Numbered from the stretch's first letter, positions 12,480 through 48,903 are shown. The stretch: DNA of 64,000 bases from a virus (IMGVR_UViG_3300040801_001888); one strand, 5' to 3'. Notes: generated from the letters alone by a model not told the origin. Program-made: numbers and translations.

Positions 12480-12500
12480 GTCAGCCTGGAGATCAATCAA

Positions 12501-13136: not shown

Positions 13137-13210
13137 CCTACAGCGCAAGTTGCGCTCAACCATGAGCGAGCCGCCGGCGGACGCGCCGATCGGCTTTTTG
13201 GAGCATAAAA

Positions 13211-26693: not shown

Positions 26694-27012
26694 CTTGATA
26701 CTCTTTGTTCTCGGGTTTGACGAAGTCCGGCGGTGCTGGGATAAATGCGGTGGTCCAATACAGAACGGCGGTCGCGTACTTCCCGATCGGCGTGCCGTCT
26801 GAATGAATCAGCCACACACGCGTCCCGTTACTGGCCCACACGTACCCGGCTGGCGGAGTTTCTGAACGGTCGTGCCATTCGGCGCCAACAACCACCTGGT
26901 GGTCGGGCCAAGACTGCTTCGCCTCTTCCAGCTCACGTTGCAGTTCAACCACTACCCCACCTAGTGCGGAGCAGTAGTTACTCATTCTTCTTATTGATTC
27001 GCTTAGCATCAT
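26677..27012 (-). CDS. hypothetical protein
   Basis: 111-aa ORF. Confidence 0.35.
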   Translation of the reverse strand: MMLSESIRRMSNYCSALGGVVVELQRELEEAKQSWPDHQVVVGAEWHDRSETPPAGYVWASNGTRVWLIHSDGTPIGKYATAVLYWTTAFIPAPPDFVKPENKEYQDEYNQ

Positions 27013-27023
27013 TGCCGGTCTCC

Positions 27024-27206
27024 TTACAGGATCGAAAGACCCAGGGCTGCCCCCAGCCAGAACCAGATGGAACCCACCTTTTGCGGGGCGGCGGCGGGCT
27101 CTTCGGTCTCGTCTGGGTCATCGGGCTCCTTCGGGCTTTGGTAGTCATCTTCGGGCCACGGCATCGGAAAGTCGACCCGGGGCGGGAACTTGATCACGTT
27201 GCTCAT
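27024..27206 (-). CDS. small membrane protein (C-terminal TM)
   Basis: 60 aa with an acidic N-terminus and C-terminal TM (SIWFWLGAALGLSIL); ATGA overlap with the upstream gene. Confidence 0.4.
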   Translation of the reverse strand: MSNVIKFPPRVDFPMPWPEDDYQSPKEPDDPDETEEPAAAPQKVGSIWFWLGAALGLSIL

Positions 27207-27382
27207 TTTCCGATCCTCCGGGCCTTGAGGGCCTCCATCATCATGTTTCGGCGGGTGCGTCTAAGCCGGAGGTATTTCTCGACTACCTCTGATACGCGTA
27301 CCAAGGCACCAAGCAGGAGTAGCACCCCGGAGATCATCAGGGTGGTCATGAGGAGCGCCTCGATCGGGGAAAGTTCTGTCAT
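27203..27382 (-). CDS. small single-TM protein (not in the ORF track, <60 aa)
   Basis: Hand-translated: MTELSPIEALLMTTLMISGVLLLLGALVRVSEVVEKYLRLRRTRRNMMMEALKARRIGK. RBS gagaggactttctgATG sits directly downstream of the consensus promoter at 27,414-27,442. Confidence 0.35.
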   Translation of the reverse strand: MTELSPIEALLMTTLMISGVLLLLGALVRVSEVVEKYLRLRRTRRNMMMEALKARRIGK

Positions 27383-27413
27383 CAGAAAGTCCTCTCAGGT
27401 TGTTGGAAGCCAG

Positions 27414-27442
27414 ACTATACGATAGCTAGCGTGTCAGTGCAA
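27414..27442 (-). promoter_or_regulatory. sigma70-consensus promoter (TTGCAC-N17-TATAGT) with conserved leader
   Basis: Read on the minus strand: TTGCACTGACACGCTAGCTATCGTATAGT, followed by ...caacctgagaggactttctgATG. Confidence 0.55.
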
Positions 27443-27448
27443 GTGGTT

Positions 27449-28963
27449 TTACTGCTTAGTGCCAAACCCGCGTTCTTTCTGATATTCCTTCATCGCGTCG
27501 CGCAGTGACTTTTGGTCCGCGCTCTTGTTGTCGATCGCGCGACGCACCAGCAGGTCCACGGTATCGTGGGCGAGGATGCGGTGAATGATGACGCTCTTGG
27601 CGGTCTGCCCGGGGCGGCGCAGGCGCCCGTTGATCTGCAGGTACATCTCCAGGTCGTAGGTCAGCCCGAAATGCACCAGCTGGTGCCCGCCGAACTGGAG
27701 GTTCAATCCATGCCCGCTCGATTGCGGACTGGTGCATAGCCCGTCATACCCGCCCGCGTTCCAGTCCTCGATGATCTTCAGCGAGTCGATGTCACTGACG
27801 CCCGGACCCAGGTAGGCAACGCGAAACTTGCCCTTGTAGCGCTTCAGGATGCGCTCGGCGTCGGGGCGGAATGCGTAACTGATGATCACGCCACTGCCCC
27901 CGGACTCCTCCAGGATCTCGTCGAGCGCCTCCAGCTTGGCGTCGTGGACCGGGATCAGGGTCTCGCGCTCCTCGTGGTGGCGCACCACGCCGTTGGCTAC
28001 CTGGCGGCACTTCGCCGTCAGTGCCGCAGCGTTGAAGACCTCCAGTTCCATCTCGTCGAACTCGGCGAACATGTTCGCTTCTAGCTCGTCGTACTGCGCC
28101 CGCGCCTTCGGCGGAAGGTCGATCATGATGTCGTTGGTCACGTAGGGCGGCAGGTCCAGGTAGTCGTCCGAGGTAAGCGACACGGTGATGTCGGCGATCC
28201 GTTGCTCGATCTCCTCCTTGGCGCCAGGGCGTAGCCAGAGGCGGCGCTCGTACTGGTTTTCCTCGAAGTACTGGCGCTTGTAGTCGGTAATGTCGACACC
28301 GAGGCGCTTGCCGCCGTCGACCGCGAGGTACTGCCCGAACAGGTCGATGTAGCCATTGGGCGCCGGCGTGCCGGTGAGCCCGACGCGGCGCGGGGAATAA
28401 TCCAGCATGCAGACGCCGCCCGTCTTGGCGTGCCACGGGCCGATCCTGGCGCCCGTGGGCTTCTTGATCCGCGTGATCTCGTCAAAGATCACCATGTCGA
28501 AGGGCGGGTATCGTCCCTGGTGCAGGAACATCGTGTTGAGGTGGTTGTAGAGCCACGGCAGGGACTCGAAGTTGGTAACCCAGACGTCGTAGGGGCGGGT
28601 CAGCTCGCGCGCCAGCAGCTTCTTGTTCGAGCTGCGCAGGATGCACACCTTCAGGTGCTGGGTGTGCGCCCACTGCCGCGCCTCGATGTGCCAGACCGCC
28701 TCTGCCACCCGCCGAGGGGCGATCACCAGGACGCCTCGGATCATGCCCCAGGCTAAGAGGTCAGTAATAGCGGTTAGGCTGATGCTAGTCTTGCCCAAGG
28801 CTAAATCGACCTGCAGCATACTACCCGGATGCGCCACAATGAAGTCAGCCGCCTTAGTTTGGTACGGGCGCAGCATGGAGCGCGGACGGATTTCGCTATT
28901 CATACTGGTCAATAATGCCCTTGCCGTCCTCGACCGAGTCGCAGACGTAGACTGCCTGCTCAT
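27449..28963 (-). CDS. SNF2-family DNA helicase/translocase
   Basis: Helicase motif I (DLALGKT), motif II DEITRIK (DEAH-like), a C-terminal helicase domain with (Q)xxGRxxRxGQ (LQINGRLRRPGQT). Confidence 0.85.
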   Translation of the reverse strand: MSRQSTSATRSRTARALLTSMNSEIRPRSMLRPYQTKAADFIVAHPGSMLQVDLALGKTSISLTAITDLLAWGMIRGVLVIAPRRVAEAVWHIEARQWAHTQHLKVCILRSSNKKLLARELTRPYDVWVTNFESLPWLYNHLNTMFLHQGRYPPFDMVIFDEITRIKKPTGARIGPWHAKTGGVCMLDYSPRRVGLTGTPAPNGYIDLFGQYLAVDGGKRLGVDITDYKRQYFEENQYERRLWLRPGAKEEIEQRIADITVSLTSDDYLDLPPYVTNDIMIDLPPKARAQYDELEANMFAEFDEMELEVFNAAALTAKCRQVANGVVRHHEERETLIPVHDAKLEALDEILEESGGSGVIISYAFRPDAERILKRYKGKFRVAYLGPGVSDIDSLKIIEDWNAGGYDGLCTSPQSSGHGLNLQFGGHQLVHFGLTYDLEMYLQINGRLRRPGQTAKSVIIHRILAHDTVDLLVRRAIDNKSADQKSLRDAMKEYQKERGFGTKQ

Positions 28964-29216
28964 AGCCGCGCAGCTTGGCGATCTCGCGGTTCTGCGCGTC
29001 GGTCGGTTTTTCGCCTTCCCGCTTGAACTCGATGAAGAACACCACGCCGTCGGGGCTGACGAACACCCGGTCGGGCACGCTGCGGTGGTTGGGCGACTGG
29101 AACTTGTAGACCAGGAAGTCCTTCTTCCTGGCGTACATGCACACGGCTGCCTCGATGTAGCGCTCCAGGGGGCGCTTGTCCGGGGCGCGGAGCTTCTTTG
29201 GCGCGGGTAACGCCAT
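28896..29216 (-). CDS. VRR-NUC domain nuclease
   Basis: ...VFVSPDGVVFFIEFKREGEKPTDAQ... is the D...E.K core of the VRR-NUC PD-(D/E)XK family; commonly paired with SNF2 helicases in phage replication modules. Confidence 0.7.
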   Translation of the reverse strand: MALPAPKKLRAPDKRPLERYIEAAVCMYARKKDFLVYKFQSPNHRSVPDRVFVSPDGVVFFIEFKREGEKPTDAQNREIAKLRGYEQAVYVCDSVEDGKGIIDQYE

Positions 29217-29218
29217 GG

Positions 29219-29776
29219 TCAGAACCGCTTGCCGTGCTTGTGCGGGCGCTCGGCGTTGTAGGCGAGCTTGGCTTCGATCGCCTCGCCGACCTCGTAGACG
29301 AACCCAGCGGACATGTCCATGATGCGGATGACTGCGTCCGCCAACTCCTCCTCGACGCCGCTGAAGTCCGGGATATGCTCGCTCGGCGGATTGCCGTGAC
29401 GCATCGACTCCAGCGCCTCGGACAGCTCAGAGTGGATCAGCGCGATCATCTCTCCTTTGTTTCGCTCGTCGCCTTCGCCCCAGAACCCCTTCTCAATGTT
29501 GCCGCCGTAAATCACGGTCGACAGATCGTTCCACGCGTTCACAAACTGCCTGGCGACGCTCAGCTGCACGGGAGGGTTATCCGTGAGCGTAGAAGCGGGC
29601 AGGAACTCCTCCTCTTTATCGCCGGTCATCACGCGCAGGTGACCGACCAGCAGTCCGACATCCAGCAAGGCGTCTTCGAAGGACTTATCATCGCGGGCGA
29701 GCATCGCCTGGCTCATCCGGTAGATGTTCGCCGCGAGCTGGTCGACGGTGGACTTGGTTTCGTCGTTGAAGTTCAT
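29219..29776 (-). CDS. MazG-like nucleoside triphosphate pyrophosphohydrolase
   Basis: EEELADAVIRIMDM and ELSEALE motifs typical of MazG/HisE all-alpha NTP pyrophosphatases. Confidence 0.65.
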   Translation of the reverse strand: MNFNDETKSTVDQLAANIYRMSQAMLARDDKSFEDALLDVGLLVGHLRVMTGDKEEEFLPASTLTDNPPVQLSVARQFVNAWNDLSTVIYGGNIEKGFWGEGDERNKGEMIALIHSELSEALESMRHGNPPSEHIPDFSGVEEELADAVIRIMDMSAGFVYEVGEAIEAKLAYNAERPHKHGKRF

Positions 29777-30150
29777 ACAGGGTCTCCGTTTACTTTCAGT
29801 TGTTTTTCGATCTCTTGTACGAGCTTTTTGGCGATATCTTCAGCGATCATGCGATTAGCCACCTCTGTAGACTCGAAGTACAGATCGTTGAGTATCTCTA
29901 ACCTCGAATATACCGGCGATAGCCGAACTTCGATAGACGAGGGTCTAGTGGGGTGCGCCGATACTCTTATCTCAGGCGGATCCCATAAGGACGCGATTTG
30001 TTGCGCGCGTTCAATCGCGATCTTCCGCAGATCCTGGCGTAGGCTGTAGTTTTCACTCGCGATCTTCCGCAGCTCATGGCGTAGGCGGTAGTTTTCGTCG
30101 GTTAGCCCGCCTATTTGACTGAGCAAGTCTTGTTCTCTTTCGGGTGTCAT
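29773..30150 (-). CDS. hypothetical coiled-coil protein
   Basis: 125 aa with a repeated LRHELRKIASENYSLRQDLRKIAIERAQ segment. Confidence 0.35.
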   Translation of the reverse strand: MTPEREQDLLSQIGGLTDENYRLRHELRKIASENYSLRQDLRKIAIERAQQIASLWDPPEIRVSAHPTRPSSIEVRLSPVYSRLEILNDLYFESTEVANRMIAEDIAKKLVQEIEKQLKVNGDPV

Positions 30151-30359
30151 GCGTCCATCTCCGCTGTTGGTCTGAAAACGGCGCCGAGTGTCGCTCTGTA
30201 CAGAATCCGCCCGACTTGGATTCTACCCGTAAGGCGGATACCGGCGGCAAATGCGCGATTTAAGTCTTCACGGACAAAAGGCAGCATTTCCTCGACTAGC
30301 TCGTCTTCTGAATCGCCGACCAATAAGGTGCGGTACGGCTCGCTCAGGGCTACAGGCAT
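30147..30359 (-). CDS. hypothetical protein
   Basis: 70 aa; overlapping stop/start. Confidence 0.3.
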   Translation of the reverse strand: MPVALSEPYRTLLVGDSEDELVEEMLPFVREDLNRAFAAGIRLTGRIQVGRILYRATLGAVFRPTAEMDA

Positions 30360-30452
30360 CGGGATCTCCGGTCAAAATAGGTGGCGCTCTAGGTGCTTCC
30401 GGTACGCAGATTGTTAATCGTGCAAACCCCTAGAGCGCCGTGGGAAAGGTAG

Positions 30453-31022
30453 TTAGGGAACGTACCCTCGGTCGAAGGCGCAGACCACGCGCTGCTGGAG
30501 CTGGTCCAGGGAACCGTCGTTCAGGACCACGCGGGTGCGGACGCCTCGCAGCGATATCCAAGAACGCGAGTCACCCGAAAAGTCGCATCCAGGACGCGTG
30601 ACGTGCCACAAATTGATCTCCCAGCCTGGCAGATTTTTACAGCACGCTTCGACTTCAGAAACGAACCCGGCGTCAGTCACGACCGCGAGCCGGGGCGCCG
30701 CCGTGGCGATCGATTGCCCCAGCATGTGACCAAACCAGTCCATGCCCAGGCGGGGCTTTATCAGGTCTTCTGATAGGGCGATCAACAGGTCGCGCCCGGT
30801 GGTGCCGGTGGGGGCGGAGCGCCATGCCCACAGCCGAATGGGCGTGGACTTCAACTGCTCGATCTCGCTGTCCTCGCAGCCGATCAGGGCGCTCATCGCC
30901 TGACGCAACGGCGTCGCTGCCTTAAACAGTTGCGCGCCGTACCGCTCGGCGAGCATCCTGCCGACGGTGTCTTTGCCACATCCCGGCGGACCGTTCAGGA
31001 AAACGATTTTATGCGGAGGCAT
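30453..31022 (-). CDS. P-loop deoxynucleoside monophosphate kinase-like protein
   Basis: Walker A FLNGPPGCGKDTVGRMLAE at the N-terminus, 189 aa, like T4-type dNMP kinases. Confidence 0.6.
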   Translation of the reverse strand: MPPHKIVFLNGPPGCGKDTVGRMLAERYGAQLFKAATPLRQAMSALIGCEDSEIEQLKSTPIRLWAWRSAPTGTTGRDLLIALSEDLIKPRLGMDWFGHMLGQSIATAAPRLAVVTDAGFVSEVEACCKNLPGWEINLWHVTRPGCDFSGDSRSWISLRGVRTRVVLNDGSLDQLQQRVVCAFDRGYVP

Positions 31023-31233
31023 CGTCGTCCTCCTCGAAATAGAAAGACTCGACTAAGAATTCAGTCCAGTCGTGCGATAACCATCCCCTGGGTCCATCAA
31101 GGTCGAGATTATCGAATTGGGCCAGCACTACCCCCTGGGTAGGCGTGAAGCGTACCAGCGCCGTTTCCCCTTTCAGGACTTCATCTGAGCCAATATATGT
31201 TCCGCGTTTCACTGCTTGTCCAACTCCCGCCAA
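31009..31233 (-). CDS. hypothetical acidic protein
   Basis: 74 aa, C-terminus EEDDDASA. Confidence 0.3.
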   Translation of the reverse strand: MAGVGQAVKRGTYIGSDEVLKGETALVRFTPTQGVVLAQFDNLDLDGPRGWLSHDWTEFLVESFYFEEDDDASA

Positions 31234-31418
31234 TGGCGCACGCAGACCGGTTCGTTGCCGACCAGCAGCGCCGCCGGCATGTCGCAGTGGGCACAGGATC
31301 GGTCGCGCCGCTTGGCCCGATACTCGCCCTTCTTGATGGGCACCAGATCGATCTCAGACGCCGCCAGCGCGGCGCGCAGTTGATCGGCGTAGATGTCACT
31401 ATCGAAATGTACAATCAT
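31209..31418 (-). CDS. hypothetical protein (Cys/His-containing)
   Basis: 69 aa, contains CAHCDM...CVRHW. Confidence 0.3.
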   Translation of the reverse strand: MIVHFDSDIYADQLRAALAASEIDLVPIKKGEYRAKRRDRSCAHCDMPAALLVGNEPVCVRHWRELDKQ

Positions 31419-31612
31419 CAGTCGTCGTCCAGCGGTTCGGGGTTATCCCGCGAGTTGGCGCGGGCGATTAGGTTGTTGCATCGGGCTACTGCGTCAGTGC
31501 AGGCGCACCACAGCTGGTTCGGGGCTTCGGTGAAGTGGTCGCAATCCCGTTGCTTCTTGACGCTGTTGGCAGTGCAGACCCAACGGCGGTTACGCTTGGC
31601 GCAGTAGTTCAT
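31418..31612 (-). CDS. small Cys-rich (zinc-ribbon-like) protein
   Basis: 64 aa with CAKRNRRWVC...C...C...C. Confidence 0.3.
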   Translation of the reverse strand: MNYCAKRNRRWVCTANSVKKQRDCDHFTEAPNQLWCACTDAVARCNNLIARANSRDNPEPLDDD

Positions 31613-32481
31613 ACCGCCATCTCCATCTTGATTGCTGGGTGCGGGGAGTACCCTTGAAGCGAGAACGCCTGAGCGATGTCTTCGGCGGTCCGCAGATCCC
31701 CGATGTCGTCCAGGGTCTTGATCCGGTCATCGATGATCAGTTGCGGAGGCAACAGCGGAAGCCGATTAAGCTGTTCCTCAAGGGCTTCGATGTGGTTCTC
31801 GTAGACGTGCGCGTCGAAGGCGAAGTAGTGGAGCGTGCCGGGGACGTGCCCGGTAATCTGCGCCATCAACTGCAGCAGCATGCCGTACTGCGCCAGGTTG
31901 AACGGGGCGCCAAGTCCCAGGTCGTTGGAACGGATGTAGACGCTCATATCCAGCATGTCGCCAATCGCCCCGAACTGCATCATCATGTGGCACGGCGGGA
32001 GCGACATCAGGTGAAGCTCCGCTGGGTTCCATGCCGTGACGATCTCGCGGCGGGAGCCGGTGCCGGCGGAGAGGCTGTCAACGACTCTGCGTAGTTGATC
32101 GATCGCCGTGCCGTACTGAGTCCGCCAATTGCGCCACTGAACTCCGTACACGCGTCCGAGATCGTCCGGTCCTTTCCGGTGCTCATTGGAAAGCCACTCT
32201 CGGTTGTCATTGGCGTTGGCGTTCCAGACTTGGCAGCCCAGCTTGCGGAAGTCGGCAGCGTTGTCGAGACCCTGCATGAAGCCGATCATCTCGGCGTAGG
32301 CGGACATCCACGCGACCCGCTTGGTAGTCAGCACCGGGGCGCCTGCGGCGAGGTCGGCGGTCAGGTAGGCGCCATGAACCTCTAGCGCGTCGACGCCGGT
32401 GCGGTTGGTCGTGCATACCCCTTCGGTGAGCACTCGGTTAACGAGATGCAGGTATTGATGTTCTACGGGAACGTGGATCAT
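31609..32481 (-). CDS. thyA: thymidylate synthase family enzyme (ThyA-like; dUMP methylase or hydroxymethylase)
   Basis: TNRTGVDAL...PVLTTKR...LPPCHMMMQFG (catalytic Cys)...RSNDLGLGAPFNLAQY (Asn retained at the ThyA-N177 position). Start trimmed to the MIHVPVEHQYL methionine, which aligns with the ThyA N-terminus. Confidence 0.85.
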   Translation of the reverse strand: MIHVPVEHQYLHLVNRVLTEGVCTTNRTGVDALEVHGAYLTADLAAGAPVLTTKRVAWMSAYAEMIGFMQGLDNAADFRKLGCQVWNANANDNREWLSNEHRKGPDDLGRVYGVQWRNWRTQYGTAIDQLRRVVDSLSAGTGSRREIVTAWNPAELHLMSLPPCHMMMQFGAIGDMLDMSVYIRSNDLGLGAPFNLAQYGMLLQLMAQITGHVPGTLHYFAFDAHVYENHIEALEEQLNRLPLLPPQLIIDDRIKTLDDIGDLRTAEDIAQAFSLQGYSPHPAIKMEMAV

Positions 32482-32669
32482 TTTTCTGGTCCCATCACTT
32501 TCAGAATTCGGTTTAGAAGGGCGATCCGCTCCATGTTCCAGCCCCGTTGCTTCTCCGCCATGCGGCGGTTTCCGATGCGGTCGCAACGCTCAGCGTGGCG
32601 CTCCTGCACGGAGATCATCCCTTCCAGCAGTTCGATCTCGCGTTCTGTGAGTCGGTCGGACTTTTTCAC
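32478..32669 (-). CDS. hypothetical protein
   Basis: 63 aa, ATGA overlap. Confidence 0.3.
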   Translation of the reverse strand: MKKSDRLTEREIELLEGMISVQERHAERCDRIGNRRMAEKQRGWNMERIALLNRILKVMGPEK

Positions 32670-32890
32670 CTTTTCTTCCTCATCTTGATGGACGCTGCGC
32701 CCACCACGACCAGCGTAACGACGAGCGTCGGTATAGTCGCGTCGTGCGGGCCGTTGCCGAGTAGCGTTACCGATAGCGGAAGCGTGATAGGAAGCAGCAC
32801 TAAGGCTAGCAGAAACAGTCTGATTTGGTCTTTCGGTGTCACGATCAGTCCTTCTTGTAGCGTTTTGACGTGGTTGGAGGTATTAAGCAT
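32666..32890 (-). CDS. small membrane protein
   Basis: 74 aa with two hydrophobic segments. Confidence 0.3.
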   Translation of the reverse strand: MLNTSNHVKTLQEGLIVTPKDQIRLFLLALVLLPITLPLSVTLLGNGPHDATIPTLVVTLVVVGAASIKMRKKR

Positions 32891-33489
32891 CGGCGCGTTG
32901 GCCAGCCCCGATTAACCCGCGTTCGCAGGGTCTTCTCATTGATACCGAAGGCTTTTGCGGCGTCCGTAACCGTCATACGGCCTTTCGGGGTATCAAGAAA
33001 ATTATTGTCGCGGCGGTTCCTGTTTTGCGTCTGTCGACTCACCCACCTACAGTTCTCGGGAGAGTAATCTTTGTTATTGTCGATCCTATCTATCGTCATC
33101 CCGCCCTCGTAAGAGCTGGCCATGTCCGTAAAGAACTCCGCAAAATGAGACCACCGCGCGCAAACACTGATACCCCTACCACCGTAGTCGTCAAACTGAG
33201 CGTTATTTGGGTTAAAACAGCGTTGCCTGAGCTGTTTCCACACCCATCTGAGTTTCTTTTGCGTTGATGCCGTACTGTTGGCACCATGAGCGCAGTCTGG
33301 ACACGCCGCCTTTATCCCCTTTTTCTCGTGATTCCGTAGATATGACGCCGCCCTGACTACCTCAGCGCCACATTGACATGTACACCGCCACAACACGCCT
33401 TGCCCATTTGGACACGAGCCTACTTTCTCGGTAACAGCTAATAGCCCGAATGTTTGTCCTAGAATGTCAATAGCTTCAGCCATGCTCAA
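32845..33489 (-). CDS. HNH-type homing endonuclease-like protein
   Basis: Cys cluster (CTCQCG...CPDC) plus YGGRGISVCARW...IDRIDNNKDYSPENCRWVSRQTQNRN, characteristic of phage HNH_3/AP2-type free-standing endonucleases; inserted between thyA-like and the DNA polymerase. Confidence 0.45.
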   Translation of the reverse strand: MSMAEAIDILGQTFGLLAVTEKVGSCPNGQGVLWRCTCQCGAEVVRAASYLRNHEKKGIKAACPDCAHGANSTASTQKKLRWVWKQLRQRCFNPNNAQFDDYGGRGISVCARWSHFAEFFTDMASSYEGGMTIDRIDNNKDYSPENCRWVSRQTQNRNRRDNNFLDTPKGRMTVTDAAKAFGINEKTLRTRVNRGWPTRRCLIPPTTSKRYKKD

Positions 33490-35573
33490 TCCTTACGATA
33501 TCTCTTTGATGTGTAGCCCGATGCACCCAAGAAGAAGCGGTCATCAAGCCAGTCAGGTAATGTTGTCATGTATCCGATTAGCCTGTCAAGTGCTTTAGTG
33601 TCTGTTTCATCACACATTGAGAATATTTCATCGTAGCAGTCTCCGACCACCTCCAAACCTGGATCGGCGTTCGCCTGTTTGAGACCGACCCACAGAATGT
33701 CTCGGCATAACCCCTGAACCAAATTCTCAAAAAATTTCGGCCCTCGGGTATCTACTCGCCGCCAAGCATTGCCCGGGGCGTTCTGGTCAATGCCCATGTA
33801 GCTGATCGAATCCGCTGTGAACGGGTCTTTGTCGGGTAGGTGGATGACCCGCCCATACTCAATCTCAGGCCGGTAGTAACTGAGGTAGCGCCCGGACGGC
33901 AGCTTCATGAACAGGAAAGTACCGTCATAGCGGAACGTCGTGCAGCGGTGTCTGTGATAGTCATACTCTCGATAGGTAACGCCGAAACGTCCTTCAGTCT
34001 CCCCCCGTACCGCTTTTGCGGCGAGGGCGTGGAACTCTCGACCGGGGTTCTCGATGGCGGCAATGGCCGCGCTCTGGAGTTGTTTCCAATAGTGCGGGAT
34101 CTCGTGGTAGAGGGTTCTGAAGGTGCGTATTTGTCGTTCCGCTTCTTCTAGTTCAATCTCAACGCCCATGCCGGCGCCATACCCGACAAGCCCGCGCCCA
34201 GAGAGGCCATAAGATGCGCCGAGAACACTTGGTTTATAGTAAGTCCGTTGCGCCTTGGTCACTTCTTCATAATCAATGCCTTCCGCTTCAGCGGCGAAGC
34301 TCTTGTAGGTATCCCTGCCAGCGAAGAAGATGTCCAGGATCGTGTCACAACCCGCTACCCAAGCCGCCCCCACGGACTCGATCGACGACAAGTCAGCCAC
34401 ACACCACAACTTACCCTCGGGTGCCTTAAGCATTGCCCGGATGCAGCTGGACAGCGTGTCGAGCACCGATCCTGGAAACATGATCTCCAGCAAGTCTTTG
34501 TCGCCGAACCGAAGCCATTCGGCGGTGGCTTCCGGATAAGGTATTGCGGGCCTGGGCAGGTTCGCCGGGTTCAGCGTTCGCCCGGCGACGCGCCCGGTGC
34601 GGCTGGCGCCGTAGAACTGCCAACCGCCGCGCAGGTTCCCGTCGTCGCTGGTGGCGGCGTTCAATGCAGCGTACTTCTTGACGGAGGACTTGTTCAGCGC
34701 TTGGCGCAGCTCAAGCACCTCGCGGACGGCAACGGGCGTCTCGGGATCATCGACGGCGTCGCGGACCGTTGCCTTGGTCAGATCCGGGAGCGGCGCATAG
34801 GGCATCTTCTGGTTGACCCATCCCAGCATCTGATCGCGGCTGTTCGGGTTGGGCAGGCCCGTCTTATGGCGCAGGGTCTCCATCAGCTCTTCCTGCTCCT
34901 GCGCGATGATCTCCAGCGCGCCGGTGACCGCTTGCTTATCGATCGGGATGCCCCGGCGGTTGATCTCACGATAGATCAGCTCCTGCTCGAGGACTTTCCG
35001 GACGCTCGGCACACGCCATCCCTGAGTCAACCACTGCATGCACCAGCGCAGCAGGTCGCGCTCAACGCGCACGTCATTACCGCAGTAGCGGACGAACTCG
35101 TCCCACAGATCCGGGGATTCATGCCACGCCTTTTTCAGGGAGGAGAACGTGCTGATGCACAGTGATCCCTTGGGGTTCTTCTCGACTTCCAGCGGGGTCT
35201 GCGACAGGACGTCCGCCAGGCGACCGGCAAAGCCCAGCTGGTACGCGCAGACGAGCACGTCGATCCAGCGTTCCGACGGCGTCGGGTAGCCCATGCGCGC
35301 CAGTCCCGCGCGGTCGAACTCGCAGTTGGCGGCGGCGAGCATGACGGACGGGTCAGTGAGGGCGTCCTCGACCCATGCCGGGAGGCGCTCACCCGCCGCC
35401 TCGTGGTCGAAGACGTGGACGTCATCGGTGCCGTGGAGCCAACCAACGCCAGTCATGAAGACTCGCGTGCCGGGGTCGTCCCAGTACCTGAACTGACCTT
35501 CCTTTTTGATGTCGCAGGGAGACCCCGTCTCGATGTCCACGACGAGTATGCGGGGTAGGTTGGTCGGGCTCAT
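33486..35573 (-). CDS. DNA polymerase I (family A) with 3'-5' exonuclease domain
   Basis: Exo I motif ILVVDIETGS; Pol A motifs (...RTYYKPSVLGASYG..., ...YMGIDQNAP...); 695 aa. Confidence 0.9.
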   Translation of the reverse strand: MSPTNLPRILVVDIETGSPCDIKKEGQFRYWDDPGTRVFMTGVGWLHGTDDVHVFDHEAAGERLPAWVEDALTDPSVMLAAANCEFDRAGLARMGYPTPSERWIDVLVCAYQLGFAGRLADVLSQTPLEVEKNPKGSLCISTFSSLKKAWHESPDLWDEFVRYCGNDVRVERDLLRWCMQWLTQGWRVPSVRKVLEQELIYREINRRGIPIDKQAVTGALEIIAQEQEELMETLRHKTGLPNPNSRDQMLGWVNQKMPYAPLPDLTKATVRDAVDDPETPVAVREVLELRQALNKSSVKKYAALNAATSDDGNLRGGWQFYGASRTGRVAGRTLNPANLPRPAIPYPEATAEWLRFGDKDLLEIMFPGSVLDTLSSCIRAMLKAPEGKLWCVADLSSIESVGAAWVAGCDTILDIFFAGRDTYKSFAAEAEGIDYEEVTKAQRTYYKPSVLGASYGLSGRGLVGYGAGMGVEIELEEAERQIRTFRTLYHEIPHYWKQLQSAAIAAIENPGREFHALAAKAVRGETEGRFGVTYREYDYHRHRCTTFRYDGTFLFMKLPSGRYLSYYRPEIEYGRVIHLPDKDPFTADSISYMGIDQNAPGNAWRRVDTRGPKFFENLVQGLCRDILWVGLKQANADPGLEVVGDCYDEIFSMCDETDTKALDRLIGYMTTLPDWLDDRFFLGASGYTSKRYRKD

Positions 35574-35824
35574 CGGTTGTAGTAGTAGTCCGTGCGAGAC
35601 TGGCTGCCGTCCGGATAGGTCGTCACCAGCGAGCTGGTAGGGCGATCGCCGTCGTCACTGAGGGCGGCGAGCCCGCCGACGAGAATGGCAGCGAACAAGA
35701 TGCCCACGACGGCTCGCCCGCCGTCGGTCAGTTCGGTCCGGGTGCCGCCGTTGCCATCAGGCACAGTGGCGCAACCGACCAGCGCCACGGACAGCGCCAG
35801 GGCGGGTAGAAGTCGAGATTTCAT
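35570..35824 (-). CDS. lipoprotein
   Basis: Signal peptide with lipobox MKSRLLPALALSVALVGC; 4-nt overlap with the polA start. Confidence 0.5.
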   Translation of the reverse strand: MKSRLLPALALSVALVGCATVPDGNGGTRTELTDGGRAVVGILFAAILVGGLAALSDDGDRPTSSLVTTYPDGSQSRTDYYYNR

Positions 35825-35857
35825 GTGGTGGTCCTCTCAGGTGTAGGTTCGCGTCGG

Positions 35858-36070
35858 CTACCGGTTGCCGCGATTATCGCGCGGGCGTTCCCGGTTCTCG
35901 TTTTCGGGCAGGGGGTCGCGGATGATCTTCACCGATTTGGCACAGGTGAAGTTGACTTGGCACCGAGACGCGGAGTGGAAGGCGATCTCGATCTCGATGT
36001 CTTCCTGACCGGGGATCTGCAGGTGAATCTTGTCACCCTTGCTTGCCATAATCTTTAACATTGTTTTACC
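35858..36070 (-). CDS. small beta-rich protein (weak CsrA- or AbrB/MazE-like pattern)
   Basis: MLKIMASKGDKIHLQIPGQEDIEIEIA... resembles the swapped-hairpin / CsrA N-terminal strand pattern, but the conservation is weak. Confidence 0.3.
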   Translation of the reverse strand, partial: GKTMLKIMASKGDKIHLQIPGQEDIEIEIAFHSASRCQVNFTCAKSVKIIRDPLPENENRERPRDNRGNR

Positions 36071-40546: not shown

Positions 40547-40990
40547 TTAAAGCTTGCTCAGTGCCCTGGCGCGACACTTCGGACCCATGCCGACGGCAAT
40601 CGATTCCGGCACTGTGAGCAGCCGCCCGCAAGAGGAACACTCGCCTGAGGTATAAAACGACAACTTTTCAGGCAGTTGCTCGCGTGTCTGTAACACGCCC
40701 AGGAGCCACTCGATCACCGCGTCTCTGCCGCCACCACGCGCGCACCGGTAGGCGAACTTGTGCTCGTGGGGCTGCCCGGGGACGATGCTGCCAACGTACT
40801 CGTAGTCGGTTCCGTTCTCGGGTCCGACCAGGCGGTTGACCCAGTAGATTGCTTCGCCATTGCGGCCCTCGCGCTCGATCACGCGGTAGGTCCGACGGTC
40901 GCCCGTGGCGTGCGAGACCAGGGTGAAGGTCGCCTTCTTGCCGAGCATGTAGGCAAGCCCGTCCCGGCAGTTGGTGAGTTCGGCGGTCAT
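40547..40990 (-). CDS. hypothetical protein with a C-terminal zinc-ribbon-like CxxC...C pair
   Basis: 147 aa; ...GECSSCGRLL...GPKCRA; its own consensus promoter lies upstream. Confidence 0.35.
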   Translation of the reverse strand: MTAELTNCRDGLAYMLGKKATFTLVSHATGDRRTYRVIEREGRNGEAIYWVNRLVGPENGTDYEYVGSIVPGQPHEHKFAYRCARGGGRDAVIEWLLGVLQTREQLPEKLSFYTSGECSSCGRLLTVPESIAVGMGPKCRARALSKL

Positions 40991-41198: not shown

Positions 41199-42065
41199 CT
41201 ACGGGTTGGTGATGTGGCCCATATTCATGGGCGTAGACAGGGTCTGAAACGGCATGTAGACCACGTCGGTCTCGTCCGGTCTGATGTTGTTCATCGTGCT
41301 TTCGGCTACCTGCAATCGCCGATGTTCCAGCAGCAATGGTGTCAGCGATTCTGCGATGATCTTGTTGCCGTCGGCAATGGCGTTAGCCTCGGCGATCTTG
41401 GCTTTATATTCAGCCGCCGCGACTTTTTCCCGTGCTTCTGCTTTGGTCACGTCAATCTCAGCTTGCGCCAATGCCTCCGCTACCTGCATCTGCCGCGCGG
41501 ACGCCTTGTCGATGGCGTCCTTCACCACCTGGGGGTAGTCCATTTTTCCGACAGAGACCGATTCCAGAACGATCGGCAAGTTTTCGGTGCGAGCCTTGAT
41601 CTCTTCGGTCACAGACGCGGCGAGGGCTTGGTAATTCGCCGGCACCTCCATCGCGTTGAACTTCGAGACGGCGGCGCGCGTGCCTTCGCGTATCTCCGGC
41701 AGCATGTAAATGCTGTAGATTTGGTCGTAACTCAGCACGTCGTTGTCGGGCAAGCTGATCGTATTGAACATGGCATTGAGCACGTCCTCACTGCCTTCGA
41801 TTCGCCCACGGGTGCGGACGTCCACGGTGAGGTCTTGACCGTCGCTGAGCTTTGCCGGGATGTCTTCCGTCACGGTGTTCGTACTGGTCTCCAGGAAGAC
41901 CAGCTTGCCGCGCCATCCAGGCCAATGCCGCCCGACCCCGAGGATCTCCTCGGTGTACCCACCAGGCGTCAGGACTTTCGCCTGGAATCCAGGCTGAACG
42001 ACTTCGCCGCACCCTTGCAAGGTAAATGCTGCCGCGCAGCACAACAGGACCGCTTTAATTCTCAT
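41199..42065 (-). CDS. SPFH/band-7 (prohibitin/stomatin-like) lipoprotein
   Basis: Lipobox AAAFTLQGC; SPFH-like core then a C-terminal coiled coil (AEALAQAEIDVTKAEAREKVAAAEYKAKIAEANAI). Confidence 0.65.
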   Translation of the reverse strand: MRIKAVLLCCAAAFTLQGCGEVVQPGFQAKVLTPGGYTEEILGVGRHWPGWRGKLVFLETSTNTVTEDIPAKLSDGQDLTVDVRTRGRIEGSEDVLNAMFNTISLPDNDVLSYDQIYSIYMLPEIREGTRAAVSKFNAMEVPANYQALAASVTEEIKARTENLPIVLESVSVGKMDYPQVVKDAIDKASARQMQVAEALAQAEIDVTKAEAREKVAAAEYKAKIAEANAIADGNKIIAESLTPLLLEHRRLQVAESTMNNIRPDETDVVYMPFQTLSTPMNMGHITNP

Positions 42066-43545: not shown

Positions 43546-45609
43546 CTAGACCGCTTGTTTCGGGTCGACAATGACGGTCAGCGGTCGACCATCGGTCCGC
43601 AGGTGGATCGTCGCATCACGCGTCTCGGCGAAGCCCAGTCCGCTAAGCTGCTCCGCAGTGGGCTGGATCGCCATCCGCCCGGCGAGCACCTCGAATACCT
43701 TGCGATGCTCTCGGAGGTCCGGGCGCAGGAACTCGTTATAGAATCCCGGCACGGTCTCGTCGGTCCGGCACTTGTCGATCAGCAGCATCCAGTGCTTGTT
43801 GCCACTGGCTTTCCCGCGCCAGTAGTTCGGGCTCAACGTGATGATGTTGACCTCGTGGTAGGCGTCGAGGGCGAGACCCCACTGTTCCGCTACCGCCGGA
43901 CCACTGGTCTCGGAGACGCCTCGCTCAACCCGGAAGTCCGTGACCTCACCGCCTTTGATGGTCATCACGGCTACTTTGGCGGTCGCTCCTGACGTCCTTG
44001 GCGACTCGACCATCGACAGGTGGCGCGTCTGCCCATCGATCTCGATCTCGATCTCGAAGCCGGAGTCGATGCGCTCGCGACGCGTGAAGTTGACGACCGC
44101 GATGCGGTAGTCGCCATCGGGCATGACCTTCTGCCAAGTGACGTTCTCGACAGCATTCCTGACGGGCTTGGCTACGTTCATGTCGACGTCTAACTCGCCT
44201 TTGCTCAACTCCCCCCGCTTGTCGTGGTAGAAGATGTGCTCTTGCCTCCCGGAATTATTCGCCGGAAAGTAGAGAACGTGCAGGTCCAGGTCGTCGGTGT
44301 TGTGCCACGACAAGCTGACCCGTCCCCAGCCGGTGACGTTACCTCCGGCACGCTTCACGCGCTCCTTGATCGAGTCCGTGACGCCGCCCCGGTAGGACCA
44401 CGCGATGGGCGAGCCCCATGCCAGCAGCGACGGCGCCTCCGGGTTCTGGGCGGTGGTCAACGTGACCAGGTTGCTGACCAACGGCGGTTGGAACAGCACC
44501 TCCAGCTTCCGGCACTCGCGCTCCTGGAGCACCTGCGGCAGGTGCTGGATCGGCACGATCTCTCCGTGCGTGGCAGTCGGGCGGCGCCGACGCGGAGCAG
44601 CGATATCGCCGGCGAGAATGTCATCGATCGTCTGGCGCATCTTAGGCGCGGTCGAGCGATTGACGAACAGCACGTCGGCGACGCTCAGGTCCGCCTCAGT
44701 CGCTAGGCGGCGCGGCAGGCTATCCAGCAGGCCAAGCTCGGTGATCGTGTCTTGCGCCTTGCTGACCATCATTGCGCTGATCGCTGCCGACGAGCGCTGA
44801 TAGTTGCCCGGTGCGACGATCCGCTCATAGACCCGGACGGCGTCGTCGAGGTTCACGGCTTCCGAGATGCTCACGAGCAGCGTGCCGATCGAGCTGTTGC
44901 GCAGTAGCAGACGGTGGTCGAACACGCGGCTCCAGACGTAGCGCTCACGCTGCCAAGAGCCCGACGGCAACGCCTCGTAGGCGATGCTAGCGTCGAGTAG
45001 CGCCTGCACAGAGTCTCTGTTCTGTGCGCCACGGTACAGTCCGTTGTCGATCAGCTCGAGCAGCGTGCGGATGTGCGTGCTGTTGATCTCCGCCAGCGTC
45101 CGCGCGATGACTCCAGCATTGGTCTCGATCGGCCCCTGCTTGTTGCGCGGGATAGGCGCGAACCGTGCGCGCGGGATCTCACAATGGAAGTGATGCCATG
45201 CGATCTCGCCGCCGTCGGCTGCCTCGTACGTGACCTCCGCGCCGGCCTTGCGCTCCTTCGAGAAGAACACCGTGCGGATCGCCGCCTGGGAGACGAGATC
45301 ATGCAGCGCCTTCGCGACGGTACGGTAGGGCTCGGGCAGACGATCGTAGCCGGACCAGATGGTCTCCAGGGTCAAGGCAGGCGTGATCGCAACAACGTTG
45401 CCCATCTGCTTGATGAAGCCCCTGCAGCAGGAGCAATCGTGCTCGGTACGCTCGCGGAACAGCGGGTCAGTACCGGGCGGGAACGCACCGAGGTAGGTGG
45501 TCCAAAGATCGTCACCGGACACGTCAGCGACGTAGGGCGTACCGCTCATAATGCGGTCGGCGGATCGGCGGACGTTATCGGCGAACAGCGTGAATTGATC
45601 GGTAGACAT
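43546..45609 (-). CDS. large early protein of unknown function
   Basis: 687 aa with HDCSCCRGF near the N-terminus; no P-loop or other recognisable catalytic signature; strong coding-like composition. Confidence 0.5.
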   Translation of the reverse strand: MSTDQFTLFADNVRRSADRIMSGTPYVADVSGDDLWTTYLGAFPPGTDPLFRERTEHDCSCCRGFIKQMGNVVAITPALTLETIWSGYDRLPEPYRTVAKALHDLVSQAAIRTVFFSKERKAGAEVTYEAADGGEIAWHHFHCEIPRARFAPIPRNKQGPIETNAGVIARTLAEINSTHIRTLLELIDNGLYRGAQNRDSVQALLDASIAYEALPSGSWQRERYVWSRVFDHRLLLRNSSIGTLLVSISEAVNLDDAVRVYERIVAPGNYQRSSAAISAMMVSKAQDTITELGLLDSLPRRLATEADLSVADVLFVNRSTAPKMRQTIDDILAGDIAAPRRRRPTATHGEIVPIQHLPQVLQERECRKLEVLFQPPLVSNLVTLTTAQNPEAPSLLAWGSPIAWSYRGGVTDSIKERVKRAGGNVTGWGRVSLSWHNTDDLDLHVLYFPANNSGRQEHIFYHDKRGELSKGELDVDMNVAKPVRNAVENVTWQKVMPDGDYRIAVVNFTRRERIDSGFEIEIEIDGQTRHLSMVESPRTSGATAKVAVMTIKGGEVTDFRVERGVSETSGPAVAEQWGLALDAYHEVNIITLSPNYWRGKASGNKHWMLLIDKCRTDETVPGFYNEFLRPDLREHRKVFEVLAGRMAIQPTAEQLSGLGFAETRDATIHLRTDGRPLTVIVDPKQAV

Positions 45610-46520: not shown

Positions 46521-47222
46521 TCAGCGGCGGCTAATCGGAGAGGCCGCTGGCGTTGACCTGCGCTGCCCAATCATGGACTTACGTTTGTTTGAACGCTCGC
46601 GCGCTAAGCCAGGGTTGCCTTTCCAGGAGGATTCGTAGCTCTCCGGCAAACGGGCTTTTTTGACCTTTATGGCGTAAATCAGCTTCGGAACCACTGTCTT
46701 GCGCGTGTGCTTAGCTTTTAGCCCGCCGCTCCCTTTCTCCTGGGCGTGTTGTTTCGTGTTCCCCTTGGTGACCCCGAGAAAGGTCCAGTTGTCCGCGAGG
46801 TAGAGCGTACCTAGTCGATCGGATTGCCCGTCGCGGCGTTCCTCAATAATGAAGGTCTCGAACCCGGCGACCTTCACGCCGTAAAGGTACTCCCAGTCCC
46901 ACGCGATCCGCTTGCGCCAAGCGGACAAGATGCGCGTGGCTCTGTTTGGCGCGGGCACCTCGAGCCTGAAAACGTTGTTACTGATGATCCCGTTCAGCTG
47001 CACTTGCTTGACCGCTTTGCTTTTGCTGAGACCGAAAAAACGATCGCGCGGACCGACGTCGTACGTTGCGCTGGCGCCGCTGATGATGCCGACCAGCTCG
47101 CCGCTGTCAAACGCCAGGTAATGCAGTTGCTGACCGTGGCATCCGCTGTTAGGGATGTAGTGTCGGTCTCGGATCGACTTATAGCGCGGGTCGGTGCGCT
47201 TAACACATTCAAGTTCAATCAT
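46521..47222 (-). CDS. R-M-operon-associated protein of unknown function (basic C-terminal tail)
   Basis: 233 aa; 4-nt overlap with the REase-like gene; C-terminal ~80 aa are Lys/Arg-rich; no DPPY/NPPY motif. Confidence 0.45.
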   Translation of the reverse strand: MIELECVKRTDPRYKSIRDRHYIPNSGCHGQQLHYLAFDSGELVGIISGASATYDVGPRDRFFGLSKSKAVKQVQLNGIISNNVFRLEVPAPNRATRILSAWRKRIAWDWEYLYGVKVAGFETFIIEERRDGQSDRLGTLYLADNWTFLGVTKGNTKQHAQEKGSGGLKAKHTRKTVVPKLIYAIKVKKARLPESYESSWKGNPGLARERSNKRKSMIGQRRSTPAASPISRR

Positions 47223-48100
47223 TGTTGCTCTCGATAGAACCCTGTCGGTACGCTCCTAACTGTCAGCGACCCACCAAACGCGCCGGGTTTTATATTGCTT
47301 TTCATGTGGCTACGCCACTGCAACGTAAACCCAGAGGAGGTCAAAGAGATAATGTGCAACGGCTTCTGAACGCTGCCGCGCGTCTCTATAACTACGTCCT
47401 GTTGCGGCAGGGGGATTTTGCGGCAGTTGAGGGAGCCGTGAAAGTTGTACCCGTCTATCATAGCGCCGTCGCTTCCCCCTATGAGTAGGTAGTGGTCGGT
47501 ATGCCCTAACGCGGCACGGAATATCTGAATGAGGTCTTGGCGCCTCCTCAGTTCTTTCTCTATGATAGTGACCGCTACGATCTCCGCTATCGTGCGTTGG
47601 GGCGGGACGTTTTTGGAGTAGCGCCCCTTTTGGTCTTCCAAGAACCAGAGAATCGACTGTATGTCGTTTCGATATTGGGGGCTGGTTTCCAACTCGCCAG
47701 GGAACGGGAGATAATCAATGTTCTCTTGACGTATTCGGTGCCCCGCCACTTCGCGGCTGTTGTGCTTGACCGAGCACGGTACTTCGCGTCCCCCGCTGCC
47801 GTAGCAAGTGATGTCGGCGAAATTGTGGTTTTGCCCTGTCAGCTTCACAGTGTGAATATCAGGCTCTTTATTCAATAGCTTTTCAGCAAGCCATTTCGCC
47901 TGTTCACGCATCCGTCTACGGCGAGCAAACGCCGCCTTGACGCCCTTGTCGTCTTTTGCCAACCCTGGCATTGATCTCACGGCGTAAAGAACCGACGATA
48001 GCCTAGCATCGCGGATTAGCTTGACCCCGGGTTGCTTGCTAATTGCAAACGCTACTGCGTACTCCATTGCCAGTCCGTTCGATACTCTTATCTGGTTCAT
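47219..48100 (-). CDS. candidate type II restriction endonuclease
   Basis: ~293 aa from MNQIRV; its ATG overlaps the TGA of the Dam-like MTase (ATGA); lower GC than neighbours; size and position consistent with a DpnII/MboI-like partner of a GATC methylase, but no motif proves nuclease identity. Confidence 0.5.
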   Translation of the reverse strand: MNQIRVSNGLAMEYAVAFAISKQPGVKLIRDARLSSVLYAVRSMPGLAKDDKGVKAAFARRRRMREQAKWLAEKLLNKEPDIHTVKLTGQNHNFADITCYGSGGREVPCSVKHNSREVAGHRIRQENIDYLPFPGELETSPQYRNDIQSILWFLEDQKGRYSKNVPPQRTIAEIVAVTIIEKELRRRQDLIQIFRAALGHTDHYLLIGGSDGAMIDGYNFHGSLNCRKIPLPQQDVVIETRGSVQKPLHIISLTSSGFTLQWRSHMKSNIKPGAFGGSLTVRSVPTGFYREQQ

Positions 48101-48903
48101 TCTTCTGCGCCTCTGCTGAGGATGATAACCTCGGCGCCGTCTTTCTCCGCGCTCATGCCGTACTTCCACTCCTTCGGGATCGAACGCAGACCCGCGTACA
48201 GCTTACGGACTTGCTCGCAGTCGTTGTAGCTCAGCACCCAACGCACGCCGTGCATGTCGAGCTTGCGCAAGATGTTGCTGAGCTTTAGGTGGTTGAAGTC
48301 GTCCCCGTGGGCGCTGCCCTTGTCACCATACAGCTTGTTCTTGCCGTTGGTCAGCAGATAGGGCGGGTCCAGGTAGATCGTCGCTGGGGCGGCGAACCGA
48401 AGCGGGCGGCGGCGCAGGCTATCGAACGCATCGGCTGACCCGAACGACAACCCCGGCGGCGGGACAAAGTCGGCGAGGCGCTCCAGCGCGCTTTCGGTAT
48501 AACGGTCAGCAGACCCCATGCCGCCTGATAGCGTCGTGCCGGAAAAGGAACTGCGGTTGACGGCGTAGAACCAGCACGCTTGCTGGAATGGCGTCCCGTA
48601 TCCAGCGCGCAGTTGATTCTGCGCCAATGCGAACATGTCCTTGTCCATGGGGAAGAAGCGCCGGCGCAGGTAGCTCGCCATCGCCGGTCCCTGCCCAGCG
48701 AAGACCTGCTTCCAGAAGTTGACGAGGGGCTGGAAGGCGTCGCGAGCGACAACCTTGCCGTTGGGGTTTGCCGCAAGCCAGGCAAACTCAACCGCGCCGC
48801 CACCAAAGAAGGGGCTGTAGAGCGTCGTCGTGTCTACGGGAATCAGTGGTAGGATCTTGGTCGTGGCGCGTTGCTTGCCGCCGGGGTAGCGTAGAAGGCA
48901 CAT
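48097..48903 (-). CDS. Dam-like (D12-class) DNA N6-adenine methyltransferase
   Basis: N-terminus MCLLRYPGGKQR (RYPGGK AdoMet motif of the Dam/DpnM family) and catalytic DPPY (IYLDPPYLL); 268 aa. Confidence 0.85.
   Translation of the reverse strand: MCLLRYPGGKQRATTKILPLIPVDTTTLYSPFFGGGAVEFAWLAANPNGKVVARDAFQPLVNFWKQVFAGQGPAMASYLRRRFFPMDKDMFALAQNQLRAGYGTPFQQACWFYAVNRSSFSGTTLSGGMGSADRYTESALERLADFVPPPGLSFGSADAFDSLRRRPLRFAAPATIYLDPPYLLTNGKNKLYGDKGSAHGDDFNHLKLSNILRKLDMHGVRWVLSYNDCEQVRKLYAGLRSIPKEWKYGMSAEKDGAEVIILSRGAEE

Follow-up and report, generated by a model that had tools for sequence, protein, structure and literature searches.

The DNA analyzed here is a stretch of 64,000 nucleotides (referred to as the window) from the virus IMGVR_UViG_3300040801_001888, an uncharacterized, siphovirus-like tailed phage from a metagenome. 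On its minus strand, positions 29219–32481 hold genes for a MazG-like protein, a P-loop kinase and a ThyA-family enzyme, the ends of the interval being the stop codon of the MazG-like open reading frame (ORF) and the ATG of the ThyA gene. The question raised by this locus is whether the three proteins serve the canonical supply of thymidine monophosphate (dTMP) or the modification of thymidine. An earlier interpretation made without database searches (the sequence-only reading) favored modification. Its identification of a MazG-like, a P-loop deoxynucleoside monophosphate (dNMP) kinase and a ThyA-family gene is borne out by matches to PHROG 3301, PHROG 139 and Pfam, all of which far exceed chance. 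Of the two functions it proposed, canonical dTMP supply is supported, and thymidine modification is contradicted by the residues of ThyA, by its score against the TIGR03284 model and by the relatives of the locus. It is very probable, judging from the predicted proteins, that ThyA is a genuine synthase, that the window encodes no known pathway of thymidine modification and that the cluster serves the supply of canonical thymidine triphosphate (dTTP). The outcome is mainly a clean negative, in that finding a thymidylate synthase (TS) homologue beside a dNMP kinase and a MazG-type enzyme does not in itself mark base replacement.

ThyA compared with synthases and hydroxymethylases

ThyA (31609–32481, minus strand; 290 amino acids from its ATG) matched the Pfam family Thymidylat_synt (PF00303) with an E-value of 5e-82 and 275.5 bits, against a cut-off of 24.3. 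With the equivalog model TIGR03284, for which the cut-off is 108.35 bits, a score of 218.4 bits was obtained, residues 8–290 aligning over the full length of the model (1–296). The reference set consisted of E. coli ThyA and two phage TSs as canonical enzymes, and of M6 gp58, PaMx11 gp51, the enzyme of a ViI-like Kuttervirus, the SP8 enzyme and T4 gp42 as hydroxymethylases. The roles of M6 gp58 and PaMx11 gp51 have been described, and SP8 has been named a hydroxymethyluracil (hmU) phage (PMC8989533). E. coli ThyA scored 455 bits with TIGR03284. By contrast, the T4 gp42, M6 gp58, SP8 and ViI-like controls aligned over partial lengths only and scored 30.6–57.6 bits, all below the cut-off, the value for T4 gp42 being 30.6 bits.

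The PHROG families gave an equivalent separation. The scores of the window enzyme (313 bits with PHROG 160, 76.5 with PHROG 5131 and 40.8 with PHROG 3676) followed the pattern of E. coli ThyA, whereas the hydroxymethylases scored highly with PHROGs of their own: M6 and SP8 with PHROG 5131 (574 and 443 bits, respectively) and the ViI-like enzyme with PHROG 3676 (607 bits). Membership of PHROG 160 was initially considered as proof of TS identity and was dropped; it is indecisive alone because T4 gp42, a deoxycytidine monophosphate (dCMP) hydroxymethylase, also falls there. Sequence identity was 41% to E. coli ThyA and 47–48% to phage TSs, as compared with 16–23% to the hydroxymethylases. In a neighbor-joining tree of 47 sequences, the window enzyme lay deep inside the clade of E. 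coli ThyA and the deoxyuridine monophosphate (dUMP) hydroxymethylases formed a separate clade. Among solved structures, the best match was the Burkholderia TS 3v8h (6.5e-70), with human TS at about 1e-62. The nearest relative among 5.8 billion proteins was 57–58% identical.

Both motifs quoted in the sequence-only reading, LPPCH and the PFN(I/L)A box, are present (as SLPPCHMM and GAPFNLAQY), and Asn177, which specifies uracil, sits in the PFNLAQY motif. The catalytic residues Cys146-His147, Glu58 and Tyr94 and the phosphate-binding Arg21, Arg126, Arg127 and Arg166 are retained, as are Arg49, Ser167, Gly173, His207 and Tyr209, such that the catalytic, dUMP-binding and folate-binding residues are complete. 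The TS state is also seen in every element for hydride transfer and folate sealing (Asp169, Trp80, Leu143, Leu172, Pro175-Phe176 and the C-terminal tail; roles as in PMC6400193). The C-terminus (...IKMEMAV) aligned with that of E. coli ThyA (...IKAPVAI), the alignment between the two being end-to-end, and among 40 homologues the TS residues vary little or not at all. The loop around Trp80 reads VWNANAN, similar to the VWDANAN of Burkholderia, from whose 323-amino acid enzymes the window protein differs in lacking an insertion, such that the match falls in two stretches. In these respects it resembles the canonical enzyme (EC 2.1.1.45).

In TS, the C-terminal tail closes the site for hydride transfer. 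Three positions upstream of the catalytic Cys, where TS has Leu143, hydroxymethylases have an Asp that activates water, and this Asp together with a missing tail has been proposed as their signature (PMC6400193). In T4 gp42, the residue at this position is Asp145, cytosine is specified by Asp179 and the C-terminal tail is missing (PMC6400193); the window enzyme, which shares PHROG 160 and the fold with gp42, has Leu and Asn at the two positions and a complete tail. The Asp is found in all five of the reference hydroxymethylases. The four dUMP hydroxymethylases (M6, PaMx11, ViI-like and SP8) have in common with the window enzyme the superfamily fold, covalent Cys chemistry on dUMP with methylene-tetrahydrofolate, and the residues Cys146, Glu58, Tyr94, Arg166, Ser167, Asp169, Asn177, His207 and Tyr209. 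All four, however, carry L143D, H147N and L172W, Gly/Ser and Ala/Ile at positions 175 and 176, a deletion of Trp80 and no Arg49, and in place of the TS tail a long, unrelated C-terminal extension. Neither their D-x-x-C-N motif nor Trp172, Gly-Ala at 175/176, the Trp80 deletion or the extension of ∼100 amino acids is present in the window enzyme, and their length of 348–383 amino acids exceeds its 290. Enzymes of the SPO1 type are 382–407 amino acids long and form a separate group (PMC4528723).

Given that the TIGR03284 scores and their controls, the PHROG assignments, identity and tree, diagnostic residues and conservation all agree, synthase and hydroxymethylase can be separated by sequence, and ThyA is predicted to be a conventional TS. 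The contention that it could not be told apart from dUMP hydroxymethylases therefore does not hold, and the search for hydroxymethylase-specific changes that it proposed, by alignment to the SPO1 gp29 and T4 gp42 families, was carried out with SP8 (an enzyme of the SPO1 type) and T4 gp42 and found the TS state throughout. Four features, among them His147 versus Asn, Trp80 and the C-terminal tail, provide rules with which ThyA homologues from genome scans can be triaged.

The catalytic Cys of ThyA, Cys164, would attack C6 of dUMP, with methylene-tetrahydrofolate supplying the carbon. Transfer of hydride from the folate within the sealed site would then yield dTMP and dihydrofolate, the latter being recycled by the dihydrofolate reductase (DHFR) of the host.

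Two of the closest phage TSs, those of phage Eos (L007, 198–1052) and Proteus phage 2207-N35 (L008, 3995–4828), are 47–48% identical to ThyA; in them, Met replaces His147 and Gly replaces both Arg127 and Trp98. They keep Cys146, Leu143 and the C-terminal tail, and match an NCBIfam model of their own, NF002498. This variant group may differ in its handling of substrate. A further ThyA, 52% identical to that of the window, is encoded on contig L092 from another uncultured phage, which has a different combination of nucleotide-metabolism genes: a protein with a PF18909 dGTP_diPhyd_N domain lies beside PolA and an rIIB-like protein (580–1020, 10001–10858).

The kinase, the MazG-like protein and modification genes

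The kinase (30453–31022, minus strand; 189 amino acids) matched PHROG 139, annotated as dNMP kinase, at 4.2e-31. With the Pfam family DNMK (PF21448), it reached 21.5 bits, below the gathering score of 27.1, over the N-terminal 42 residues only. Given the PHROG 139 match despite this sub-threshold score, the protein is a distant relative of the dNMP kinases. Its AF2 model (pLDDT 93.3) gave T4 dNMP kinase (1DEK) as the top Foldseek match (E = 1.9e-9, TMq 0.77), approximately three orders of magnitude better than generic nucleoside monophosphate and sugar kinases. The fold, the GKD(T) P-loop and the A-P-[IL]-[KR] motif that follows it are common to the kinase and T4 gp1; the two proteins differ in length (189 versus 241 amino acids) and are about 19% identical. 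Among 36 homologues, a GPPGxGKD P-loop was conserved, as were Arg77, Ser84-Glu85, Asp117-G-F-x2-Glu123, Arg143 and Asp151-Ser-Arg153. The phage homologues, at most 35% identical, come from T1-like, K1G-like and G7C/N4-like coliphages, which, to our knowledge, have ordinary bases and have not been reported to replace one.

An assignment of the kinase as a 5-hmdU DNA kinase (5-HMUDK) was considered in view of similar lengths (187 versus 189 amino acids) and was ruled out. M6 gp54, the 5-HMUDK of that phage, is likewise a small P-loop protein of ∼190 amino acids; it has no detectable similarity to the kinase (BLASTP E = 32) and belongs to PHROG 800 rather than PHROG 139. Our best call is therefore a dNMP kinase that offers no pointer to base replacement. 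Such an enzyme, of the gp1 type, would most likely convert dTMP to the diphosphate dTDP, and probably other dNMPs derived from host DNA to diphosphates, from which nucleoside diphosphate kinase of the host would form the deoxynucleoside triphosphates (dNTPs).

The MazG-like protein (29219–29776, minus strand; 185 amino acids) matched PHROG 3301, a pyrophosphatase family, at 1.2e-28. No Pfam or NCBIfam match was obtained at E ≤ 0.01, nor did a direct sequence search of the PDB return a match; the family profile gave weak matches to MazZ (7ody, 8.5e-5) and DCTPP1 (2.9e-4). A catalytic core at residues ∼75–185 follows a helical N-terminal extension of 75 residues, which is common at full length to a minority of the homologues listed. 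The acidic E-x2-E...E-x2-D residues (Glu109, Glu117, Glu120, Glu123, Glu142, Glu144 and Asp147) are conserved among 43 homologues. The AF2 model is all helical (pLDDT 88.8), and its top Foldseek matches were members of the MazG family, namely 3cra (probability 0.99), 1vmg and 5ie9, with DCTPP1 also among the fold matches. The four-helix core and acidic residues are thus shared with all-alpha pyrophosphohydrolases such as E. coli MazG, S. solfataricus MazG (1vmg), DCTPP1 and MazZ (7ody), from which the window protein is distinguished by the missing Pfam MazG match and by its N-terminal extension. It is predicted to be a catalytically competent NTP pyrophosphohydrolase. Its homologues are frequent among phages of Pseudomonas and Gordonia and Mu-like phages of Burkholderia, and we know of no report that these phages replace a base. 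A reading of the gene as part of a Z-genome system (PurZ/MazZ/DatZ) was ruled out because the scanned proteins included no PurZ or HD homologue and no DatZ partner.

The window was also searched for genes of known modification pathways. When all six frames were compared by tblastn with M6 gp51–gp55, the gp59 HD hydrolase, the gp65 dCMP deaminase and ribonucleotide reductase, nothing was found below E = 0.2, the sole exception being the weak similarity of ThyA to gp58. For the aGPT-Pplase or amino-acid:DNA transferase and the PLP, radical-SAM or FAD tailoring enzymes (gp51, gp52, gp53 and gp55), the best E-values were at least 0.23, and that for the 5-HMUDK gp54 was 3. Pfam scans of ∼40 window proteins detected no aGPT-Pplase, pyridoxal phosphate (PLP) enzyme, radical-SAM enzyme, DHFR, dUTPase or deaminase, in agreement with the earlier observation that no PLP or radical-SAM enzyme is visible. 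Similarly, neither an HD-type dTMPase/dTTPase (HD nucleotidase) nor a dCMP deaminase was found in the window frames or Pfam scans. The M6 and PaMx11 hydroxymethylases adjoin an HD hydrolase, and in M6 hypermodification genes also accompany the enzyme; neither was found in the window.

Other genes of the window had been considered in connection with modification. Both methyltransferases, described as consistent with a DNA-modification lifestyle, are N6-adenine enzymes and are irrelevant to thymidine. The two ORFs suggested for comparison with aGPT-Pplase profiles have other affiliations: that at 40,547–40,990 (147 amino acids) matches DUF6011, and that at 43546–45609 (minus strand), a large, well-conserved phage protein of 687 amino acids in the replication region with no Pfam domain, matches PHROG 1735, of unknown function, from end to end (7.6e-187).

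Relatives of the locus and competing explanations

Three related contigs, L094, L095 and L096, were found with the MazG-like protein as query and compared by local tblastn over ∼10 kb to either side of the MazG-like gene. They share with the window a backbone of PolA-orf63-[ThyA]-orf64-orf69-[orf74-kinase-orf70]-orf125-MazG-VRR-NUC-SNF2, in which the brackets mark variable segments and the numbers give ORF lengths in amino acids. In L094, a frameshift-rich assembly with a helicase 95% and a single-stranded DNA-binding protein (SSB) 93% identical to those of the window, ThyA (72–83% identical) and the MazG-like gene are present and the kinase is absent, as are orf74, orf70 and the HNH endonuclease gene of the window. 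In L095, the homologue of orf63 abuts that of orf64, and both ThyA and the kinase are absent. Both are also absent from L096, the PolA of which is 62% identical. The MazG-like gene is present in L095 and L096 as well. ThyA and the kinase are thus separately variable accessory insertions, and the MazG-like gene belongs to the core. Given that ThyA and the kinase occur independently of one another, the trio does not constitute an obligate base-replacement pathway, and its distribution fits auxiliary metabolic genes. The view of the trio as a classic mark of base-replacing phages accordingly fails on two counts: homologues of the kinase and the MazG-like protein are found in phages not known to replace a base, and the genes do not travel together in relatives.

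The three proteins are divergent representatives of known families, encoded by a phage of an uncultured lineage, and the gene cluster is an ordinary one. No match was found when 27000–36000 was compared by megablast with 50,697 phage records, and PolA, at most 34% identical to the polymerases of Chi-like and BcepNazgul-like siphophages, indicates a lineage without a close cultured relative. Searches for related loci in IMG/VR with PolA found no relative; those with ThyA returned only matches of at most 41% identity, none of them syntenic.

The explanation favored by the sequence-only reading, in which ThyA is a dUMP hydroxymethylase and thymidine is replaced by 5-hydroxymethyldeoxyuridine (5-hmdU) or a simple derivative, appears very improbable. 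The catalytic Cys and uracil-specifying Asn are consistent with it but are common to TSs and dUMP hydroxymethylases. A kinase of the gp1 type would also suit, since T4 gp1, its nearest structural relative, phosphorylates hydroxymethyl-dCMP in T4, and the weak profile match to MazZ recalls a MazG-type enzyme that serves Z-genome phages. Against these points, every discriminating residue is in the TS state, including Leu for Asp and an intact C-terminal tail; ThyA passes the model that all hydroxymethylase controls fail and lies inside the canonical clade; and the window contains no HD-type dTMPase/dTTPase, dCMP deaminase, 5-HMUDK or aGPT-Pplase. Furthermore, an obligate pathway is hard to reconcile with relatives that have replication proteins 85–96% identical to those of the window and yet have no ThyA or no kinase gene at the corresponding positions. 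Least probable of all is that non-canonical thymidine arises through a canonical-looking ThyA or an unrecognized protein, such as the 687-amino acid PHROG 1735 protein or the orphans of 316 and 378 amino acids, with the gp1-like kinase phosphorylating a modified dNMP. Were this the case, it would represent a route to base replacement without any known marker genes.

Several considerations nevertheless weigh against assigning ThyA and its neighbors to canonical dTTP supply. As well as the activity of T4 gp1 on a modified nucleotide, TS mutants with a truncated C-terminus, or with changes at Trp82 in L. casei TS, are known to leak 5-hydroxymethyl-dUMP, such that hydroxymethylase activity might in principle arise on a TS-like scaffold through changes other than those scored here. 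A DHFR gene is absent from the window, so recycling of dihydrofolate depends on the host. The relatives were seen over ∼10 kb on each side of the MazG-like gene, and ThyA or kinase genes could sit elsewhere on those contigs. Finally, the negative results extend to the window, and the source contig, at 76 kb, has ∼12 kb more. That portion probably carries the genes for head and packaging, none of which are found in the window. Because of this outlying DNA and the many orphan ORFs, our confidence in canonical dTTP supply, although high, falls short of certainty. What the analysis shows directly is family membership, conservation of residues, fold and which genes the relatives have or lack; the substrates of the kinase and of the MazG-like enzyme, and a canonical composition of the virion DNA, are inferred.

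With respect to how the three enzymes would act, ThyA and the kinase are best regarded as separately acquired auxiliary genes that would raise the supply of canonical dTTP. The MazG-like enzyme forms part of the conserved replication backbone and would act independently of them, most likely in house-cleaning or shaping of the nucleotide pool, for example by converting dUTP or dCTP to the monophosphate. A single coupled dTTP line, in which the MazG-like protein as a dUTP or dCTP pyrophosphatase feeds dUMP to ThyA and ThyA feeds dTMP to the kinase for conversion to dTDP, is possible but doubtful. The three genes do lie on one strand in a tight operon, and dUTPases and dCTPases are found among the all-alpha NTP pyrophosphatases, DCTPP1 being both a weak profile match and among the fold matches. 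However, the MazG-like gene stays beside VRR-NUC and SNF2 where ThyA and the kinase are missing at these sites, from which a role independent of them follows; its homologues are common in phages without ThyA; and the sequence does not disclose its substrate. It is unlikely that the MazG-like enzyme, possibly together with the kinase, is directed mainly at host defense or stress signaling, through hydrolysis of alarmones or signaling nucleotides or restoration of dNTP pools that host defense has depleted, rather than at the bulk synthesis of DNA precursors. Such a function would agree with a conserved core gene of the lineage that is independent of ThyA, and the PDB title of the top fold match, E. 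coli MazG, describes a regulator of the nutritional stress response; the gene, though, lies within a replication module and no defense partner adjoins it.

Layout of the locus and the surrounding genome

The gene calls made by JGI on a metagenome contig identical to the window agree with the ORFs described here, and the exact ThyA, MazG-like and kinase proteins were also found on JGI 3300040792 and on Logan contigs of up to 76 kb. Five small ORFs of 64–125 amino acids are interspersed among the three genes. Neighboring ORFs overlap by 1–14 nucleotides in most cases. Given that starts and stops mostly overlap, the genes from PolA through the SNF2 helicase form one tight operon, with the family A DNA polymerase (PolA) upstream of ThyA, and VRR-NUC and the SNF2 helicase downstream of the MazG-like gene. 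All features of this operon are on the minus strand.

PolA (33486–35573) carries PF00476 in the JGI call. Between it and ThyA lies an HNH endonuclease (32845–33489; PHROG 374, 3.9e-51) that overlaps the PolA stop codon and is probably a mobile homing endonuclease, because it has no counterpart in L094–L096. It is followed, directly upstream of ThyA, by a backbone ORF of 63 amino acids (32478–32669) with homologues 79–82% identical in L094 and L095. Downstream of ThyA are two conserved Cys-rich backbone genes, the first of 64 amino acids (31418–31612; homologues in all three relatives) and the second of 69 amino acids (31209–31418; homologues 76–78% identical in L094 and L095). Together these two ORFs (31209–31612) have several CxxC-like spacings and flank the ThyA insertion point in all close relatives; their products may be zinc-binding proteins.

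The insert that bears the kinase also contains an ORF of 74 amino acids (31009–31233; 67 amino acids by JGI), with no significant family match, and one of 70 amino acids (30147–30359), with no family match; neither has a homologue in L094–L096. The 125-amino acid ORF between the kinase and the MazG-like gene (29773–30150) has only a weak match to PHROG 2553 and a homologue in L094. On the far side of the MazG-like gene are the VRR-NUC nuclease (28896–29216; Pfam VRR_NUC, 5e-4), which adjoins MazG in L094–L096 also, and the SNF2-family helicase (27449–28963; Pfam SNF2-rel_dom, 3.8e-13, and Helicase_C). Elsewhere on L096 (JGI 3300028388), five consecutive short ORFs of 90–151 amino acids at 11665–13237 all match FGE-sulfatase (PF03781); they could represent either one gene broken into pieces or several small FGE-like domains in tandem.

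The left arm of the window holds the tail genes, among them those for a collagen-like fiber, an amidase, a major tail protein, a tape measure protein and a J-like protein. A tail-fiber-like protein of 1337 amino acids (3666–7679, plus strand) is internally repetitive, with up to 11 repeated stretches matching collagen-like or tail-fiber PHROGs. The early region, on the minus strand, encodes an Enc34-type SSB, a DUF2800 nuclease, a RecD-like helicase, an SPFH protein, a DruA-like protein, a D12 methyltransferase and an SprT-like protein. Beyond it are a RepB/VapE primase and a PD-(D/E)XK nuclease that adjoins a Dam-type methyltransferase. The SPFH/Band-7 protein (41199–42065, minus strand; PF01145, 3.2e-16) is kept on the identical JGI contig.

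A protein with the Druantia DruA domain (PF14236, 2.7e-14) is encoded at 46521–47222 (minus strand), directly upstream of the 316-amino acid orphan and the D12 N6-adenine methyltransferase, the ORFs grouped with it being at 47219–48169 and 48097–48903. In the early operon of a phage, it could have an anti-defense or decoy function. The possible R-M system of the sequence-only reading consists of the PD-(D/E)XK nuclease (PF20472, 3.3e-20) and the Dam-type methyltransferase (PF05869, 1.6e-15), which overlap by 4 nucleotides at 59424–60574 (minus strand); the two may form a small pair resembling a restriction-modification system, or may be a methylase accompanied by a nuclease.

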